From Candidatus Woesearchaeota archaeon (GTDB taxonomy: Archaea > Nanobdellota > Nanobdellia > Woesearchaeales > SKGA01), in NCBI GenBank assembly GCA_046546105.1, contig JBKGYN010000005.1:1-51118 (forward strand): 51,118 nucleotides of DNA. Reading direction: 5' to 3'. Positions 12,554 through 51,118 of this stretch are shown here, piece after piece. The notes beneath the pieces were generated by a model that did no database searches, was not told the DNA's origin, and worked only from the letters and a program-made list of their open reading frames with translations. Every line of letters starts with the position of its first letter. The first letter of the stretch is position 1. The position numbers were made by a program, and so were the translations under genes.

Positions 12554-12835
12554 ATGATCATGGCAAAAGATGCTAAAGGTGGCAAGAAAGGAGATAAGGC
12601 TGCCAGCGGTTCACTTTTCACTGAAGCTGTTCCTGCGACCGTCGAAGAGATTGTCGGACGTACGGGTACACGTGGAGAGGCTATCCAGGTACGGTGTAAA
12701 GTCCTGGAAGGACGAGATAAGAACAAGATCCTCAGACGTAACGTCAAGGGTCCTGTCCAGATCGGCGATACGCTGATGCTGAGAGAGACTGAGATTGAAG
12801 CACGACCTCTTAACAAGGCTGGACGTGGAATCTAG
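12554..12835 (+). CDS. rps28e: 30S ribosomal protein S28e (N-terminally extended; start may be 12560)
   Basis: [19 protein letters not shown] and [11 protein letters not shown] motifs. Confidence 0.95.
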
Positions 12836-41786: not shown

Positions 41787-44027
41787 CTATGCGAGGTTTC
41801 CGATGATATTTCCCGCAACGATGTTGAAAAGCAGTATGATGATAAAGGCAAGTGTGCAGTAAAGACCGGTCGCTTTTGTCATGTTCTGTCCCAGAAGATG
41901 CTCTTTCTGGATCCTGTCAGGTCCATTTTCTATGCCATTGGCGATGACCGAGAGGATAAATGATAATTCCACCACATAGAGTCCTACGACTATCTGGAAC
42001 GGGTACGTTGGAATCCCTGTTCCGAACATCTGGAGCATACCGCCCCCTGCAACGCCTGCGCCGGCTGCTCCGCTTCCGAGCTCGCCGAGCTTGTTGCCGA
42101 GTTTTCCCAGGATCTTGGTGATCATGCTCGTGATTCCGATGACAACTCCTGAAATGACGGGTGTGAGGAATTTCACCTGGCTTTTCATGCTTGAGATGAC
42201 ATCACCCATAAGATCGTCGAGTCGTTCATCGACACGGTGCATCTGCTTGATGTATTCCGAGACATTGATAAGCGCTTGGCTTGCTACTCTAGGACCTTTC
42301 TTCGTCGATTCCACAAGTACTTTCATTGAACTTTCTATGAGATCCGACGGATAGAATTTCAGCGCTCCTTTCTCAGGGTCGAAAATTGCTTTCTCGACAT
42401 TCATTCCCAGCCTTGTGATGTTCATATGTGCTAGGTGAAAGAATTTGCCTGAAGTGGTCCCTTCCATCATCGCCGAGACTTTGCCGAATGACATCTCCGC
42501 AGGGATGCCATCGCCGATCCTGTTTCCGAGTTGGAAGAGTGCTGATGAGAACTCCAGTTCGAGCTTCTTTGATTGGTTTCTCACCTTGATTATCTTTCTT
42601 GATCTGAGCTTATAATAGAGTCCCATGCTATAACCGATGCCTAAAGGTATGAGTATGCCCAAGAGCACTGCTCCCATCCCGAATGGACCTACCATCTCGC
42701 CCTCGTGCCCTTCTTCACTCCGTTCCCTGTAGTCGAGAAAATAATATAGGACATCAGATTCGTCATCATATTGGAGATTCTTGAATTGTGGTCCTGTCTC
42801 TGTCTGCACGATTCCGAAGTCTGTTTGCGGGTTTATGGCGTGGAATGCCAGTGGAAAGATCCCTATGAGAAAGAGTACAATGGCAAAGAGTGCTGCCAGT
42901 GATGCTGGGTTGAGATAGAGTTTCTGACCGCCTAGATTCAGCGGTATTTTCTGGTATTTCTTGAGTTCAGGATTCTTTTCAGTGATATCTTCTCCCCCTG
43001 ATCCTCCTGGTCGTGTCGAGAGTATCTTTGTCCCGAGATAATAGACCATTGCAGGTAGTGCGATGTTGTAGATGACAAAGAGATGATACCATCTGAATCC
43101 CTCCATGAAACTGACAACCAATGGGAGAATGACTAGAGTGAGGATCGGCAGGACGACACCGAGCATGTTAAGCGTAGTGAGGGGTCCTTTGAGGTTATGT
43201 GCATAGTGAAGCATCTTCTCATACGTCTCATCTAGCATGACATTGAGCGCTTTATCAAGACTACCCAGACGCCGTTCATTGACTGATTCGAGAAGCGATG
43301 ATTGGATGAGGTTCATGCTCTCGACGAACTCCTGATTCCATTTCCTCCATCTTTCCAGATAATCATCAAGCGATACTTTTATCGATTCGTACTTTCCTGT
43401 TTCCACATCCCAGACCACTTTGCGCAGATCAAGTGATAGGGGCGGGTTCAAGTGTTCTGACGCGAAGTTTATAGCTAGTTCCAGATTTGACGTGTGTCTC
43501 ATGTACGTGACGATGTAGAAGATAGAGAGAACCATCTGGTTTGACGCTCTCATCCGCCATTGATTGGCAAGTGTTGATGGCAATCCTTGTAATGCGATCA
43601 TGATCGCCAGACCACCCACTACAGAAACGATCACGAAAAACATATTCCCTTCACCGCCCATCATTACAGGCATCATGAAGAACATGATCATGGAAACGAG
43701 AATGAGAAGGAGGGGTATGAGAATCGAAGCGCTGTACACACCCGTTGCGGTGGTGTTGAGATGGCATGTTCTGATTGCATCCTCGTAGCTTTTCTGCTTT
43801 CCCTTGTCCGGCTGGATGTTCAGCGTCTTTTCCGCTGTCTGGCAGATTTTTTCATAGATCGAGAGGTGTTTCGGGATGTATTGCTGTTTGAACTCTTCGT
43901 ACTCTCTCGTGTTCACTTCTTTTTCGAGCTTTTCCTGATCGCTTGCTGAGGAGTTTCCTGAAAGCTCTGATTCTAGCCGCTGCTTGTACATCTTTGATAC
44001 TTGGCTGAAATCAGAATCGTCACTCAT
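41787..44027 (-). CDS. Type II/IV secretion membrane platform protein (TadC/PilC/ArlJ-like, two T2SSF-like halves)
   Basis: Multi-TM; two cytoplasmic domains (YMRHTSNLELA; LGNRIGDGIPAE); follows the secretion ATPase. Confidence 0.8.
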   Translation of the reverse strand: MSDDSDFSQVSKMYKQRLESELSGNSSASDQEKLEKEVNTREYEEFKQQYIPKHLSIYEKICQTAEKTLNIQPDKGKQKSYEDAIRTCHLNTTATGVYSASILIPLLLILVSMIMFFMMPVMMGGEGNMFFVIVSVVGGLAIMIALQGLPSTLANQWRMRASNQMVLSIFYIVTYMRHTSNLELAINFASEHLNPPLSLDLRKVVWDVETGKYESIKVSLDDYLERWRKWNQEFVESMNLIQSSLLESVNERRLGSLDKALNVMLDETYEKMLHYAHNLKGPLTTLNMLGVVLPILTLVILPLVVSFMEGFRWYHLFVIYNIALPAMVYYLGTKILSTRPGGSGGEDITEKNPELKKYQKIPLNLGGQKLYLNPASLAALFAIVLFLIGIFPLAFHAINPQTDFGIVQTETGPQFKNLQYDDESDVLYYFLDYRERSEEGHEGEMVGPFGMGAVLLGILIPLGIGYSMGLYYKLRSRKIIKVRNQSKKLELEFSSALFQLGNRIGDGIPAEMSFGKVSAMMEGTTSGKFFHLAHMNITRLGMNVEKAIFDPEKGALKFYPSDLIESSMKVLVESTKKGPRVASQALINVSEYIKQMHRVDERLDDLMGDVISSMKSQVKFLTPVISGVVIGITSMITKILGKLGNKLGELGSGAAGAGVAGGGMLQMFGTGIPTYPFQIVVGLYVVELSFILSVIANGIENGPDRIQKEHLLGQNMTKATGLYCTLAFIIILLFNIVAGNIIGNLA

Positions 44028-44031
44028 CGTA

Positions 44032-46344
44032 TTATGCCCGTATATTTTCGCGTTGTTGTTTTTTCATCTGTCTTCGCTTGACCTCTCGTTCAAGCCAGGA
44101 ATTCCATTCGAAATAAATCTGGTCGTTATCGGGTTTTCCTTTTCTCTTGATGATTTTTTCCACTGTCTTGTGGAACTTATCATTTGCCAGGATGACAAAG
44201 TCCGCTTCCAGGAGTTCTGGCATCTCGTATTCTTCGCTTATCTCATAGACTCGTTGCTTGGTCTTCGCCCGTAATTCGATGTTCTCCCACATAGCATCCC
44301 AGTTGCCGGTGTATTCCTTGACCTTTCCGGCGATTTCTTTTAGGATGTCGCTTTCTCCGTTGAGCAGTTCTTGTGTCGGCTCGAGCTCGTCAGTTTCGGC
44401 ATTGTATTTCATGAGATCGACAAAACCGTTTTCCGTATTCGGATCATCCTCCCATGATTTTCTCACTTCGGTAATCTGAAGTACTCGTCGCATCTTGTGC
44501 AGCCCGTCTGCTGACTTGATAGGGTTTGCTATCACCACGATGTCGGTCGCTTTGAATGATGTTTTTGGAATCCCTATATCGTTGACTAGCCGGTCGAAGA
44601 TGCCATAAGGGCTATCACCGTGGATCGTACCGGCAACGACATTCGCTGCCGCTCCTACTCGCATCGCTTCATAGAGTGCCTTCGCTTCCCCGCTTCTCAC
44701 CTCGCCGACGATAAGAGCTGAATCTCCTAATCGTAGCGTGCTTCTGATACCATCATCCGCGTTGAACTCACCGCCTCCTTTCGAGAGTGCGCTTGCTACT
44801 TTCATTGGTTGTATATTGAAGCCCAGCTTTCTCATGGCTCCTGTTGGAAGCTCTAAAGTGTCCTCTATGGTAATGATCCTATGTCTTCTCATGATTTCTA
44901 TGAGCAGTGACGAGAGAAAGCTGCTCTTCCCGCTGCTTCGGGTTCCACACACTAGCATCGTTCTTGTTCCGTCAATGAGAAAGGAGAGAAGTCCTGCAGC
45001 CAGTGGCGATATCATCTTGTACTTGAGAAAGAGTGGTAGCGTCCACGGCTTGTCACGGTGGCGTCTGAACGAGAATGCAAGTCCTGAAGGGTCAAGCGGC
45101 CTGGTGATTGTTGATGTTCTCACACTCGCCCCAGGGAGTTCTATTTCAGTATCCAGAATAGGGTTCGCCTCGTCAAGCGGTCGTCCTGATACCATCCGCA
45201 GTTTCGTCGCCCAGCTTTCCGTATCACTGACTGTCGGATAGATGTTCGTGACACAATCATCATAAACGGCGTGCACTACAAAAATCGGGATCTCTCCGGC
45301 TGGACTATTGACAGAAATATCCTGTATCTTCTCATCAGAGAGGAGTACTTCTATAAGTCCGAATCCAACCGTATACCTGACCAGTATTCTCGCGAGTTCT
45401 TCCACCTTATCATCAGAGAGTGTCATCTTGCGATAGCTGGCCAACTCCTCGATAAGGTCCTTGCCGACATCGTAGAAGACTTCTCGCATCCGCATCGGAT
45501 CGGTGAATTCCTCCTTGTCCGGCTTGTGCTCGCTCATGATCTTTCGGGCCGTGTCAAGCAGGTCATAGACATCTTCTGAAAGCTTGAACTCTGGCGGCAT
45601 GACGTGATAGATATACTGGACCGATTCCGGAGTCTCGAAAACGACCACTTCCGTTTCTCCGATTGAATAATTATCCAGTTCCACAGCGTTTTTCGGATAC
45701 GTCGCCATGAGCTTCGTGAACATGAAATCTGGCTTGATCGTCGGGCTGAAAATGCGCCTGTATACATCCCTGTTTCCGATTTCATAACCTTCAACATATG
45801 GTTTTACAAGCGCAAAGAACTTCGTCGCTTCAAGCATCTTGAGCAGGTGTTCGAGAATCGAGATATAGTGCTTGTGTCCTTTGATGAGATTCTCTTCAAT
45901 CTCCTTGTCAAGGCGCACCATCTCGCGTCGCCTAATCCGTTTGATCTTGACATAACAGGCCAGAGGATCTTTTTTCAGTTCTGCAAATAGTACATTGTGC
46001 AGTTCGTTGTACTTGTTCGCCAGTTGGGCTGAAGCCACTGATTGTGCGAGTGACCCGTAGCTGAACAGTTCCTTGTGGTGCACGAGCTTGTTATAGAGCC
46101 TTGCGATCTCTGCCAACACCGATACTTGGTCGAAGTCGTATTCGTACTCGTGCTTTTGCATGAAGATGAGTTTTGTCGTTGCCGGATTCTCGATGAGTAG
46201 CGTGATCGCCTCTGACATCGTGACCTCATCATCCTCTATGGATGGAATCCTTCCTCGCGTGGTGTAATCGACGTTGAGAATGACATCATCTCCTTCCCTG
46301 ATGACTTCATAGTTGAGTTTCTTGTTCTGGGAACTGGTTGGCAT
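44032..46344 (-). CDS. Type IV pilus/VirB11-like secretion ATPase with long N-terminal extension
   Basis: GTRSSGKSS, TIEDTLEL, LRLGDSALIVGEVR and GTIHG motifs. Confidence 0.9.
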   Translation of the reverse strand: MPTSSQNKKLNYEVIREGDDVILNVDYTTRGRIPSIEDDEVTMSEAITLLIENPATTKLIFMQKHEYEYDFDQVSVLAEIARLYNKLVHHKELFSYGSLAQSVASAQLANKYNELHNVLFAELKKDPLACYVKIKRIRRREMVRLDKEIEENLIKGHKHYISILEHLLKMLEATKFFALVKPYVEGYEIGNRDVYRRIFSPTIKPDFMFTKLMATYPKNAVELDNYSIGETEVVVFETPESVQYIYHVMPPEFKLSEDVYDLLDTARKIMSEHKPDKEEFTDPMRMREVFYDVGKDLIEELASYRKMTLSDDKVEELARILVRYTVGFGLIEVLLSDEKIQDISVNSPAGEIPIFVVHAVYDDCVTNIYPTVSDTESWATKLRMVSGRPLDEANPILDTEIELPGASVRTSTITRPLDPSGLAFSFRRHRDKPWTLPLFLKYKMISPLAAGLLSFLIDGTRTMLVCGTRSSGKSSFLSSLLIEIMRRHRIITIEDTLELPTGAMRKLGFNIQPMKVASALSKGGGEFNADDGIRSTLRLGDSALIVGEVRSGEAKALYEAMRVGAAANVVAGTIHGDSPYGIFDRLVNDIGIPKTSFKATDIVVIANPIKSADGLHKMRRVLQITEVRKSWEDDPNTENGFVDLMKYNAETDELEPTQELLNGESDILKEIAGKVKEYTGNWDAMWENIELRAKTKQRVYEISEEYEMPELLEADFVILANDKFHKTVEKIIKRKGKPDNDQIYFEWNSWLEREVKRRQMKKQQRENIRA

Positions 46345-48039: not shown

Positions 48040-48570
48040 ATGAGAAATCGTTCTTGGTTGGCAAAAGCGGTCTTGTTTACTGGCACAGCAGTAACGCTTC
48101 TAGGTAGTTATAGTTGTCAACGGATCAATCCGCCAAGTCAATATGCTGATATCACTTCTGAAATCCGATTATCGGAAGAACCGGTTGATTCTGTGTTACG
48201 AGCGTATGAAGGGAATGCTGTTTCGATCGAAGGAACGTATGTCGGGCAATCTTATGAGTCCAGATTTCTCGGTGATGAATTATCGGTGCGGCTTGCTGTC
48301 GGCAGTGATACGATTGATGTTGAGGCGAGGGGCATTCCTGGTGATTACATGCGGTTGAAAAGAGGTCTTTCTCTCGATCAATCATCAGTGTCGACCGTAC
48401 AGTCCTGGCTTGCTGAGAAGAATTCGTTGGATGTGACCTTGTCAGGGATTGTTGACAATAACAAGTTTTACATGCACCGGATCAAGCATAACGGGTTGAG
48501 TTTCAACCTGTTGAAAAATGAGGAGTTCGCCGAAGGTAACCTTGTGGAATACCGGACATCAAAAAAATAA
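48040..48570 (+). CDS. Secreted/lipoprotein-like hypothetical protein
   Basis: Basic N-terminus, hydrophobic stretch, then GSYSC; TATA ATTATAAA about 30 nt upstream. Confidence 0.7.
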   Translation: MRNRSWLAKAVLFTGTAVTLLGSYSCQRINPPSQYADITSEIRLSEEPVDSVLRAYEGNAVSIEGTYVGQSYESRFLGDELSVRLAVGSDTIDVEARGIPGDYMRLKRGLSLDQSSVSTVQSWLAEKNSLDVTLSGIVDNNKFYMHRIKHNGLSFNLLKNEEFAEGNLVEYRTSKK

Positions 48571-48592
48571 CTCCTGCGAGTGTAAATTGACC

Positions 48593-49036
48593 ATGTTAAC
48601 TAAGAACGAACGTAAGGGAACAGTCGAGTATATTATCGATAAGGTTATCGAGAAAGGAACTCTTGTCAACAATACAGGCACTATCAAAAAGTACGAGGCT
48701 CATCTGCTGTATTGCTCGCTTGGCATCTTGAAGCCTGCTAATAAGAAATATTCTGCCGTCGTCGAGATTGCAGAAAGTTTCGGTAAACCTGACTTCAAAC
48801 CGGAAAGCTGGCAGGATGAATCCTTTGATGGCGTGCGAACGCTGTATCGTGGCGGCACTAATGGTTTGAACAGGGTCGTCTTGCAAGGCTTGTATTATCC
48901 TGAAGCTGACGGTCGGGTTCTTCCACCATCGGAACGGTTGCAGAGGTCTGTCAATCATGATGATGAGAGAAAATTAGCTCCTGAAGATATTGACCGTTTC
49001 GATGCGTTTCTGTCTTATGCTCGCAGGGAGTTATGA
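48593..49036 (+). CDS. Hypothetical protein
   Basis: 147-aa ORF directly downstream on the same strand. Confidence 0.6.
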   Translation: MLTKNERKGTVEYIIDKVIEKGTLVNNTGTIKKYEAHLLYCSLGILKPANKKYSAVVEIAESFGKPDFKPESWQDESFDGVRTLYRGGTNGLNRVVLQGLYYPEADGRVLPPSERLQRSVNHDDERKLAPEDIDRFDAFLSYARREL

Positions 49037-49082
49037 AGTGTTTTCGTGAGAAAAGCTATTGCAAGGATAGGAGATACGACGT

Positions 49083-49244
49083 TCAAACATCGCTTTTACC
49101 GCTTGCTTTCCTGATCTTATCCATTATCGCTTGTCCGAACCCTTCATCGTTGATTGCCTTGAGAAGTATGAGATCATGACCTTGATGGTCTGATTCCCTG
49201 AAATCCTTGAATAAGTTCTTTCCCATATCAGTTTCGTTCTCGCC
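49083..49244 (-). pseudogene. sua5: 3' remnant of sua5 (threonylcarbamoyl-AMP synthase C-terminal SUA5 domain)
   Basis: Translates GENETDMGKNLFKDFRESDHQGHDLILLKAINDEGFGQAIMDKIRKASGKSDV*, resembling the SUA5 C-terminal pattern NLF..LRE.D..G.D.I......G.G.AIM.R..KA; no upstream domain in frame. Confidence 0.6.
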
Positions 49245-49318
49245 CGAGCCGATAGGCGAAAGCGCAGCGGGGGTCGAGGCGAAGCCGAAGAAGTTTGAGA
49301 TTTGGGCGTATCAAGGAC

Positions 49319-49937
49319 GAAGTCTGAGCATTATTGAGTGTAATCACTGTTATGCGACCCGAGAGGGCGAAAAACACTGAAGAGAGAACGAGCAATTAAC
49401 TTGCGAGAGAACGAAGAAGATCGTTTTTCGGGTATGACGCAGGACTGAAAAGGACGAGTAATATCTCAGCATAATCCTTGTTATGTGTTTTTTCTGCAAG
49501 AAAAAATGCCGGAGCGAAGCGTAGGCACAGTATGGCGGAAGACAAATATTTATTGTTACTTGGAAAACAACGTGGTAATTGCTGCATAAATTAATGCTCC
49601 CATAATCATTGCTATGATTGCAATAATAATACCTGTGGGAAGTGATTCAAGAGACCAGCTCGTAGTAACACTTGCAATCATGACATCCGCAAGCGTCCCT
49701 AAAGCAATTACTATTGTTAACATTATCATTAATCGATTAGTTGTTTTATTATCCATATTATTTAGTTAATTAAACATGTATATAAATATTTGTCTGAGTA
49801 ATATTGCACATAATCACTGTTATACTCTCCGCAGGACAAGAATTTCAAGAGTGGCTTGCTCACTCGACAGAAATTCGCAGAGTAAGGCGCAAGAAGAAGT
49901 CTGAGCATTATTGAGTGTAACACATTGTATGCGTGAA
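49319..49937 (+). mobile_element. Array of four directly repeated dif-like recombination sites delimiting three cassettes (131, 339 and 107 bp)
   Basis: 11-6-11 sites at 49333-49360, 49464-49491, 49803-49830 and 49910-49937, each preceded by or overlapping a GAGYAWTAT motif; adjacent tyrosine recombinase. Confidence 0.75.
49556..49756 (-). CDS. Small two-TM membrane protein (cassette cargo)
   Basis: 66 aa, two hydrophobic helices, AT-rich, own TATA (TTTATATA at 49786-49779). Confidence 0.7.
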   Translation of the reverse strand: MDNKTTNRLMIMLTIVIALGTLADVMIASVTTSWSLESLPTGIIIAIIAMIMGALIYAAITTLFSK

Positions 49938-50118
49938 ACGCTGAATTCCTTCGTTTGGATGTGTTCATCCGCTCGTTTTTGTTGTTTCACTCAGAAAAAA
50001 CTGTTGTGTCTGGTAAGTGAGTGTCAACATCTATCATTCGCTTGTTTTCGCAATATTTCCGGATGTTATGCAGAAATCGTTTTTAAAGATGTTTGTGGCA
50101 AGGTGTTTTGATGTTCTT

Positions 50119-51059
50119 ATGACTGTTGATGTGCTGTATAATATGAAACGCGAGATGCTTCGGCGTAAGATGAGCCGGAAAACGATCTCCACATATCTGC
50201 AGTACGTTAGGCAGTTCCTTGAGTTCTGTAAGGATAATGATGTCAGACAGTTCTCGAAAAGGGATGTTCGCGCGTTTCTCATATCCCTTCAGGAGAAGGG
50301 CGTGGCTGGCTCGACTCTTAATGTCGCTCATAATGCTCTTCGTTTTCTCATGATCGATATCCTTCATAAGTCGATGTATCTCAAGCTCAAGTTCGCAAAG
50401 ACTCCTAAGCGTGCTCCTGCTCATCTTTCTAAAGAGCAGGTCGCTGCCATCCTTCGTGCTATAGTCAACCCTAAGCACTGGCTTCTGGTCGCTCTCATGT
50501 ACGGTGCGGGTCTTCGTGTGAGCGAGGTTGTCAGCTTGAAAGCATCAGATCTTGATTTTGATCGTTCCATAGGCCGGGTTCGCCATGGCAAGGGTGATAA
50601 GGAGCGCCCGTTCATTATTCCTGACATCTTGATCGGCGAGTTGAAAACCGCTTTTGTGAAAGAAATGAGAAGTGGTTGTTTTCTGGTCGGAAAGGACATT
50701 TATCAGTGAAATCAGTACGAGAGATCGTGCAACAAGCTGCTGATAAAGCAAGAAAACAACACAATCGTGAAGCAGAAACCAAATCACAGTACCCTAACAA
50801 CAGTTCCCCGAAATTAGACTACCGTCTGCAAAACCCAGAAGACCGCTCCCAGGGCCCTGTTCACAGCCCCCAGATCCCTGATAACGTCCATCCTCACATG
50901 TTCCGCCATTCCTTTACTACCCATCTATTGGAAGCGAAGTATGACGTCTCGACCGTCCAATCGCTTCTCGGTCACGTGCATCCTGCAACGACATTAGGCT
51001 ATTCTCACACGAGGCGACCGAAACTGTTGACTGCAAAGAGCCCGTTGGATGAATTTTAA
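50119..51059 (+). pseudogene. Tyrosine recombinase (Xer/integron-integrase-like) split by a -1 frameshift at about 50644-50650
   Basis: N-terminal SAM-like domain (S.KT..TY), GLRVSE, GKGDK, HMFRH, LGH, TTLGY and C-terminal KSPLD; ORFs 50119-50709 and 50676-51059 join as ELK-RFCERNEKWLFSGRKG; TATA at 50080-50087. Confidence 0.88.
50780..50880 (+). repeat. Heptamer-type tract inserted in frame in the recombinase
   Basis: AACCCAG AAGACCG CTCCCAG GGCCCTG TTCACAG CCCCCAG ATCCCTG. Confidence 0.6.
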
Positions 51060-51118
51060 GAACGAGTCAAGATAAAGAGAGAAAACAAAAAAATATCGCT
51101 CATCACTTGAACTGCTTC

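Follow-up and report, generated by a model that had tools for sequence, protein, structure and literature searches.

A candidate integron-like gene-capture platform built on dif-like sites and a XerA-related recombinase in Woesearchaeota

Integrons are the textbook example of a device that stockpiles and shuffles genes, and to our knowledge every known integron, archaeal ones included, uses the integrase IntI and folded attC sites. These attC sites are long, imperfect inverted repeats of 57–141 bp, which fold in the single-stranded state. According to the portions of the published work available to us, a dif site consists of two 11-nt inverted repeats and a 6-nt spacer (PMC8371274), cleavage by XerA is placed at an end of the spacer (review; PMC2958812, PMC8371274), and the dif modules of Acinetobacter are thought to move by site-specific recombination (PMC12907356, PMC7399989, 10.1101/2024.04.09.588662). 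Here, we analyze a locus from Candidatus Woesearchaeota archaeon (GCA_046546105.1, JBKGYN010000005.1) in which four 28-bp sites lie beside a tyrosine recombinase gene (Table 1). The stretch studied, hereafter the window, has 51,118 nt and is the whole of contig C5 in a genome of 959,909 bases and 29 contigs (completeness 97.7%). The locus is most probably a chromosomal copy of a gene-capture platform that resembles integrons and is present across Woesearchaeota; in this platform, a recombinase descended from XerA would act on 28-bp dif-like sites. A first-pass annotation of the window had proposed mobile cassettes at dif-like sites, a dedicated non-IntI recombinase, and a platform at site D, nearest the gene; this core is supported by the data below and is seen across the Woesearchaeota.

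All four predicted sites, A to D, are found with two 11-nt arms around a 6-nt center, i.e. the inverted repeats and spacer of a XerA/dif site, a layout that also holds for the sites of the wider family. Their cores read TAA-N6-TTA in A, B, and C, and TAA-N6-GTA in D. An exact 25-nt stretch is common to A and D, as predicted (49319-49343 equals 49896-49920), and the identity ends exactly at the junction of left arm and center, i.e. at TAA before the center begins. The predicted spacing of about 180 bp between sites and recombinase is also accurate, with 181 bp from the end of D to the ATG at 50119. A GAGYAWTAT box described as conserved is present left of all four sites but proves to be a local feature, GAGYAWT being found at 15 of 109 sites of the wider family. 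The pattern RYATAA-N6-TTATRY occurs in the whole genome at B and C only. A scan of the genome with a position weight matrix, a check of the kind that the first-pass annotation had suggested, gives only two weak matches elsewhere (scores of 11.5 and 14.7), while a shuffled genome gives three matches of at least 10 and one of at least 14 with the same matrix. This matrix was made from relatives' sites and also contained A, C, and D, so the scores of these three in Table 1 are circular. The four sites are real and the sole ones of their kind in this 960-kb genome.

Recombinases homologous to that of the window have such sites nearby, as the first-pass annotation had required. A search of 61 related genomes and of a species-level genome collection returned 148 relatives, for which 80 loci were kept; we used 55 archaeal loci (L026-L079 and L081) plus the window, i.e. 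56 loci, and dropped L080 and L082-L105, which are bacterial records at 29–35% identity. Two types of site recur. The D type (ATTG-NNNN-TAA, center C-N4-T, right arm ATATGCGAA-like) is present in 35 of the 56 loci, and it lies 177–225 bp from the ATG in 25 of these 35 and 284–1529 bp away in the other 10. The S type (ATTG-NNNN-TAA, center TY-NY-TG, TTA-NNNN-CCC) is found zero to six times upstream per locus. Matches to either type with a score of at least 14 are all upstream and on the strand of the gene; none is downstream or on the other strand, in loci that include about 4 kb of downstream sequence. Among the 21 loci without a D site, 10 have <400 bp of upstream sequence and 11 have at least 400 bp. 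In two genomes of a sister genus (L010 and L011), an insert of about 550 bp, in which two small genes run on the other strand, separates the platform region from the recombinase start; this fits the loci where D lies 428–1529 bp from the ATG.

The arrays can be long. For example, a complete genome of 1.13 Mb has one array beside the paralog gene, with 10 S sites and D over 13.6 kb, and all five exact and four of eight one-mismatch matches to the site pattern in that genome fall within it. A further array has 11 S sites and D over 17 kb, and at most the arrays occupy >1% of the genome in these tiny-genome DPANN archaea. An independent set of 80 metagenome contigs, found via one site variant, provides 190 sites. 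In none of these loci do sites occupy both strands, D comes last in all seven loci that carry it, and in the 6 of 80 contigs with a recombinase gene, this gene is invariably right of the array. The sole case seen of a site beyond the recombinase gene is on metagenome contig L161, where a recombinase gene of 45% identity is followed, about 3.7 kb downstream and on its own strand, by an S-type site at 12743. Of 55 loci, 17 have a contig end <500 bp upstream of the gene and 2 have one <500 bp downstream; within 1500 bp, the numbers are 28 and 4. Such upstream breaks fit heterogeneous or repeated arrays.

The arms of neighboring sites indicate what the mobile unit is. If a unit with a palindromic site is opened once, the right arm of one site should be reverse-complementary to the left arm of the next site and not to that of its own. 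This was scored on the five variable positions of the arms in 168 unique cassettes from 61 arrays; six of the cassettes come from the L034/L109 array of a genome flagged as unpublished (G061). Paired in this cassette-wise manner, the arms match at 3.74 of 5 positions, compared with 2.48 for the two arms of the same site and 2.41 when one cassette is skipped. Shuffles give 2.37 ± 0.08 and none of 10,000 reaches 3.74; shuffles within arrays give 2.58, and none of 5,000 does. The same holds for the subset from genome loci (48 cassettes; 4.19 vs 2.45) and for that from the 80 metagenome contigs (111 cassettes; 3.74 vs 2.63). The values for the three window cassettes are 3, 4, and 4 positions, as against 1, 2, and 2 for the two arms within sites A, B, and C. 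The left arm of D follows the same rule, with a mean of 4.35 of 5 against the right arm of the preceding cassette (20 D rows), while its center and right arm are conserved.

Taken at the level of sequence, each segment is thus a cassette with its own palindromic site, which would be split at the left-arm/center junction upon insertion. From the cassette-wise pairing and the conserved center and right arm of D it follows that this junction is the exchange point, and since the left arm of D obeys the pairing rule, D is the place beside the recombinase gene where cassettes enter. The attI-like role that the first-pass annotation suggested for D is thereby supported, as it is by the fixed distance of D-type sites from the ATG in most loci that have one. 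The complementarity is not the repetition of one word: each variable position shows two to four types of Watson–Crick pair, and 36 fully paired cassettes contain 19 distinct 5-nt arm words. Complementarity kept through at least 19 words suggests that the arms pair with each other in a hairpin or a cruciform, because a protein that reads each arm separately would not demand it. As such, the covariation hints at a base-pairing constraint, and the sites, which the first-pass annotation took to be double-stranded and not hairpins, may act either as double-stranded or as folded DNA.

The neighboring enzyme is a candidate for the catalyst, and its class agrees with the earlier description as non-IntI. 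The intact ortholog scores 192.2 bits with the integron integrase model TIGR02249 (cut-off 265) and is matched in two stretches, while the two halves of the window enzyme match model positions 2-176 and 251-314 only. With the XerA equivalog model NF040815, the intact ortholog reaches 194.9 bits, below the cut-off of 220. A second, intact recombinase on contig C6 of the same genome scores 240.9 bits, above that cut-off, and is the canonical XerA. When 55 full-length proteins are placed in a tree, seven rows, the XerA of this genome among them, form a XerA clade, which is split with 100/100 support from a 48-row clade that holds all 31 site-linked genes, and most of the rows without sites in the latter have upstream sequence too short to judge. 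No S or D sites are present at any of eight XerA loci, nor in the 10 kb around the C6 gene. The recombinase would be dedicated in the sense originally proposed, i.e. the site-linked genes form a clade apart from XerA, whose genes have no such sites nearby.

All catalytic residues are present in the window recombinase, although a frameshift divides its gene and a 40-aa low-complexity insertion (50751-50870) stands directly before the HxxR motif. At this position, the same-genus ortholog in G009, the closest relative, carries an insertion of another sequence (about 27 aa), while other orthologs lack any insertion. Population data, which consist of assembled contigs from four public runs of one study, one of which may be the source of the genome, list four base differences and no indel in the recombinase across the contigs of runs X1, X2, and X3. 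Because no run's contigs list an indel, the frameshift is real and common to strains that differ in their cassettes. In total, a disruption that lies within the contig affects 7 of the 56 genes (the window, L037, L039, L042, L067, L074, and L077). Programmed frameshifting was considered and is unlikely: the window gene, L037 (in G009), and L039 (in G037) are each broken at a different place, and such close orthologs are therefore decaying copies. Most relatives have the system intact, and the window array is a copy of it in decay. Its recombinase is probably inactive and, since the gene is frameshifted, the platform is probably inactive as well or served in trans.

The same runs reveal that cassette content varies within and between samples, as the first-pass annotation had anticipated. 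Specifically, contigs from X2 and X3 join 49471 to 49918 with three ambiguous letters, i.e. the left arm of B to the center of D, and so skip 446 bp that are exactly cassettes 2 and 3. The depth of this joint is 9.0 in X2 and 13.8 in X3. X2 holds both forms, with a 503-nt contig that carries the cassettes at a depth of 4.9, while 49608-49859 is uncovered in X3. With only TAA shared by its two sides, the joint is not explained by homologous recombination. Run X1 differs in another respect: the stretch 49440-49534, with the right-hand end module of B (49440-49523), has a depth of 243 compared with about 20 around it. Many contigs diverge on either side and depart from the window sequence at 49471-49534. 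This end module, which belongs to cassette 2, is thus common to many cassettes in the X1 community. X1 also contains a joint that goes back from 49836 to 49450, with four letters between and a depth of 4.9; it could belong to another array of the community and was left unused.

Among the 168 cassettes, 107 have 200–1400 bp, 34 have <200 bp, and 27 are longer, the latter probably hiding missed sites. Mid-sized cassettes usually hold one open reading frame (ORF), and those <200 bp hold none. A single array can have its largest ORFs on both strands, so the cassette genes are not co-oriented as in integrons. Twelve of 20 cargo proteins scanned have a Pfam match. These include four peptidases (two S51, one S66, and one M48), an MFS transporter, a small kinase, LemA, a 2'-5' RNA ligase-like protein, a methyltransferase, an HD protein, and a UvrA-like ATPase.

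What recurs between arrays is a module of 40–120 nt just right of the right arm. Compared with the stretch left of the sites, this end module has a higher G+C content (47% vs 35%) and a more negative mean folding z score (−1.12 vs −0.24). It contains short hairpins with GNA-type loops, a kind of loop known for high stability in single-stranded DNA, and accounts for most of the ORF-less cassettes of about 100 bp. By eye, a transposon reading of the cassettes was rejected in the window and in the long arrays: the centers that flank a cassette are not identical, and there is no target duplication. Rfam models give only chance-level matches over 48500-51118. In ORF-less cassettes (e.g. 49361-49463 and 49831-49909 of the window, and 4659-4775 of L110), short G+C-rich hairpins have GAA, GTA, or GCA loops closed by C-G and are followed by a GMAGAGT-like motif.

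In the mechanism that we propose, the mobile form would be a circular cassette with one site of palindromic arms (G-NNNN-TAA, a 6-bp center, and TTA-NNNN-C), followed by the G+C-richer hairpin module. The paralog recombinase would pair this site with D, strands would be exchanged at the left-arm/center junction, and the cassette would come to lie at D, beside the recombinase gene. Chromosomal sites would then be hybrids, with a left arm from the left cassette and a center and right arm from the right cassette. Because S and D centers share no homology, insertion may stop after one pair of strand exchanges, with replication completing it, a route that is known from integron attI × attC recombination and from the CTX phage. 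Recombination between two S sites, whose centers are alike (TY-NY-TG), would instead excise cassettes. The circular form and the order of strand exchange are what we infer from this arrangement. A stronger version, in which the system would be a second kind of integron, derived from XerA and independent of IntI, whose site arms must base-pair, whose sites are recognized in folded or cruciform DNA, and whose cassettes enter by one-strand exchange and replication, is put forward as a tentative idea that may well prove incorrect.

Several observations weigh against a gene-capture platform. Eleven loci lack a D site despite at least 400 bp of upstream sequence (L033, L046, L047, L061, L062, L063, L074, L075, L077, L078, and L079), 2 of which (L078 and L079) have a XerA-like C-terminal motif. 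The weight matrices were trained on the same family in which the sites were then counted. Pairing is imperfect, with 67 of the 141 cassettes of up to 1400 bp fully paired and segments >1400 bp pairing at 3.26. An all-against-all search found no cargo twice in different arrays, and movement between genomes would be at most a surmise. The short side of the joint has 27 letters, below the 31-letter bridging rule, and the contigs come from a single study. Cassette content differs between and within samples although the recombinase is frameshifted in the contigs of all three runs, which reflects either older events or another enzyme acting in trans. The putative catalytic role of the recombinase is assigned from linkage alone. 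Finally, G009 has one lone S site at the syntenic place. There (position 1279 of L230, on contig C11 of G009), the TGT gene and an intact Sua5 gene are syntenic with the window, and the lone site has a GAGCATT box. No further sites occur in the next 8 kb, and array cassette content is not comparable at that place; the G009 recombinase, with a D site, is at the start of another contig.

A rival reading is that the sites are dif-like targets of the housekeeping XerA encoded on C6; the segments would then exploit the host Xer machinery, in the manner of integrative mobile elements exploiting Xer (IMEX) and of dif modules, and the neighboring recombinase would be a bystander or a relic. The sites do have the 11-6-11 layout of archaeal dif, as far as it is described in the portions available of PMC8371274 and PMC2958812, the genome encodes an intact XerA above its model's cut-off, and cassette content varies in a population where the local recombinase is frameshifted. 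We nonetheless regard this as improbable. The distance from D to the paralog gene is fixed in most loci that have D, the eight XerA loci are devoid of S and D sites, the paralog clade is separate from XerA with 100/100 support, and in the complete 1.13-Mb genome the 10 S sites and D are gathered in one place beside the paralog, whereas one dif site suffices for a chromosome.

Even less probable, at roughly half the weight given to host XerA, is that the array is no cassette system and that plasmids or viruses integrated one after another at a single attachment site and then decayed to fragments. Tyrosine integrases often adjoin their att sites, and the 25-nt direct repeat of A and D resembles an attL/attR pair. 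But the segments are of single-gene size or about 100 bp, each retains the two halves of a palindromic site of its own, no replication, capsid, or transfer genes are among the 20 cargo proteins that were scanned, and a search with one common S-site variant had no matches in viral contigs. We give hardly any credence to the idea that the repeats are protein-binding or regulatory sites of the recombinase promoter, or chance likenesses, with no recombination involved. Their position upstream of a gene and the box at all four window sites would suit such a role, but arrays that reach 13.6 kb, arms that pair cassette by cassette, and a variant deleted exactly between two sites all argue against it. 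A cassette platform served by a dedicated recombinase thus remains the reading that we favor.

The features of the locus are collected in Table 1. Concerning its left edge, no Sua5/YrdC N-domain is present anywhere in this genome, at its 97.7% completeness, while 8 of 14 genomes of the genus have one and the syntenic Sua5 gene of G009 is intact (338 aa). The edge would thus correspond to a deletion that took most of Sua5. A contig from run X2 departs from the window sequence at 49235 and, by eye, continues the Sua5 frame; a co-occurring strain may have an intact copy. The product of cassette 2 is an orphan membrane protein, for which an Atlas look-up gives a best score of 0.86 and no family. 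A perfect 14-nt inverted repeat (49540-49553 and 49782-49795) flanks its ORF, and the sequence outside this repeat resembles the two halves of an ORF-less cassette, as if a gene had been set into one.

Table 1. Coordinates of the sites, cassettes, and genes of the locus in the window
Feature	Position	Strand	Remarks
Sua5 gene remnant	49083..49226	-	Last 47 aa (Sua5_C), Pfam PF03481, E 1.7e-9; left neighbor of the array
Hairpin-rich 3' cassette remnant	49236..49332	+	No left-hand site of its own; resembles the stretch before D; abuts the truncated Sua5
Site A, S type	49333-49360	+	Left arm 49333-49343, center 49344-49349, right arm 49350-49360; matrix score 38.4
Cassette 1	49344..49474	+	131 bp, no ORF; center of A to left arm of B; 3 of 5 variable positions pair, plus TAA
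Site B, S type	49464-49491	+	Outer left arm atypical, TCTC in place of ATTG
Cassette 2	49475..49813	+	339 bp, one ORF; arms pair at 4 of 5
ORF in cassette 2	49556-49756	-	66-aa hydrophobic protein, no family; only ORF between the sites
Site C, S type	49803-49830	+	Matrix score 38.7
Cassette 3	49814..49920	+	107 bp, no ORF; 4 of 5 variable positions pair between the right arm of C and the left arm of D
Site D, platform (attI-like)	49910-49937	+	Score 33.8 as D type; left arm cassette-derived, center and right arm of conserved D type
Leader, platform to recombinase start	49938..50118	+	Short motifs common to orthologous loci (upstream regions compared by eye)
Tyrosine recombinase, XerA-paralog clade	50119..51059	+	Two frames, one frameshift between 50644 and 50655

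On the right, the last 55 bases of the window (51064-51118) are the end of contig C19, reversed. The genome has five further contig pairs with a 55-base overlap and one with an overlap of 50 bases, which could be joined. Beyond the C19 overlap are a convergent aldolase-like gene and then a sugar-kinase-like gene, and there is thus no large mobile element on that side. Upstream of the locus, two large ORFs on the minus strand (746 and 770 aa) occupy 41787-46344, and by eye the second resembles a secretion or pilus-type ATPase.

If this interpretation is correct, the locus represents a second, independently built cassette platform, and the strategy of stockpiling cassettes evolved more than once. 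It would also mean that DPANN archaea hold a gene-capture device derived from a chromosome-resolution enzyme and its dif-like sites. Such a device would explain the recurrent assembly break in these metagenome-assembled genomes, offer a compact recombinase system with 28-bp sites, and give a handle on how episymbiotic archaea acquire accessory genes. The arrangement is not described in the literature searched, as represented by the available portions of papers that include PMC9668308, PMC8138268, PMC8371274, and PMC2958812; supplements lay outside this comparison, so data S3 of PMC9668308, which deals with archaeal attC clusters, could overlap with it.

The likeness to integrons, as the available parts of the archaeal study present them (Ghaly et al. 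2022, PMC9668308), extends to a recombinase gene beside a fixed insertion platform, to cassettes that mostly carry a single gene and sometimes no ORF, to site halves at the two ends of each cassette, to diverse and mostly unknown cargo, and to arrays that break assemblies. The differences lie in the parts. Integrons require IntI with its specific additional domain, while the enzyme here lacks what the IntI model demands, is below the IntI cut-off, and branches with XerA-like proteins; in place of attC hairpins are 28-bp dif-like palindromes with a hairpin module, whose covarying arms may allow a folded form; cassette genes here have both orientations, while those of integrons are co-oriented and read from a platform promoter; and exchange here takes place at the left-arm/center junction of a Xer-type site. 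These parts are closest to archaeal XerA/dif, as outlined in what is available of PMC2958812 and PMC8371274, i.e. XerA is the closest protein family (194.9 bits), the 11-6-11 layout and the TAA/TTA inner arms are the same, and the exchange point that we place at one end of the center likewise corresponds to a spacer end. XerA/dif differs in that the enzyme here stays below the XerA cut-off while a true XerA is encoded elsewhere in the genome, in that a single site per chromosome contrasts with many co-oriented sites beside the gene, and in that arm sequences here vary freely between cassettes.

All sites here point one way. Site orientation alternates in the dif modules of Acinetobacter. As far as the accessible parts of PMC12907356, PMC7399989, and 10.1101/2024.04.09.588662 go, these are likewise gene modules bounded by Xer-type 28-bp sites, but they depend on host XerCD, mostly reside on plasmids, and lack both a platform site and a recombinase of their own. 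The sites described here go with a recombinase clade of its own rather than with XerA genes, and probably do not form host-Xer modules. IMEX use the host Xer and integrate as whole elements, and XerS and XerH resolve dimers at a single site. With IMEX and with the single-recombinase systems XerS/difSL and XerH/difH, our locus shares dif-like integration points and a recombinase gene beside the site (see also PMC3325230). Overall, the locus would work like an integron and is built from Xer/dif parts, yet it is neither an integron nor a dimer-resolution system.

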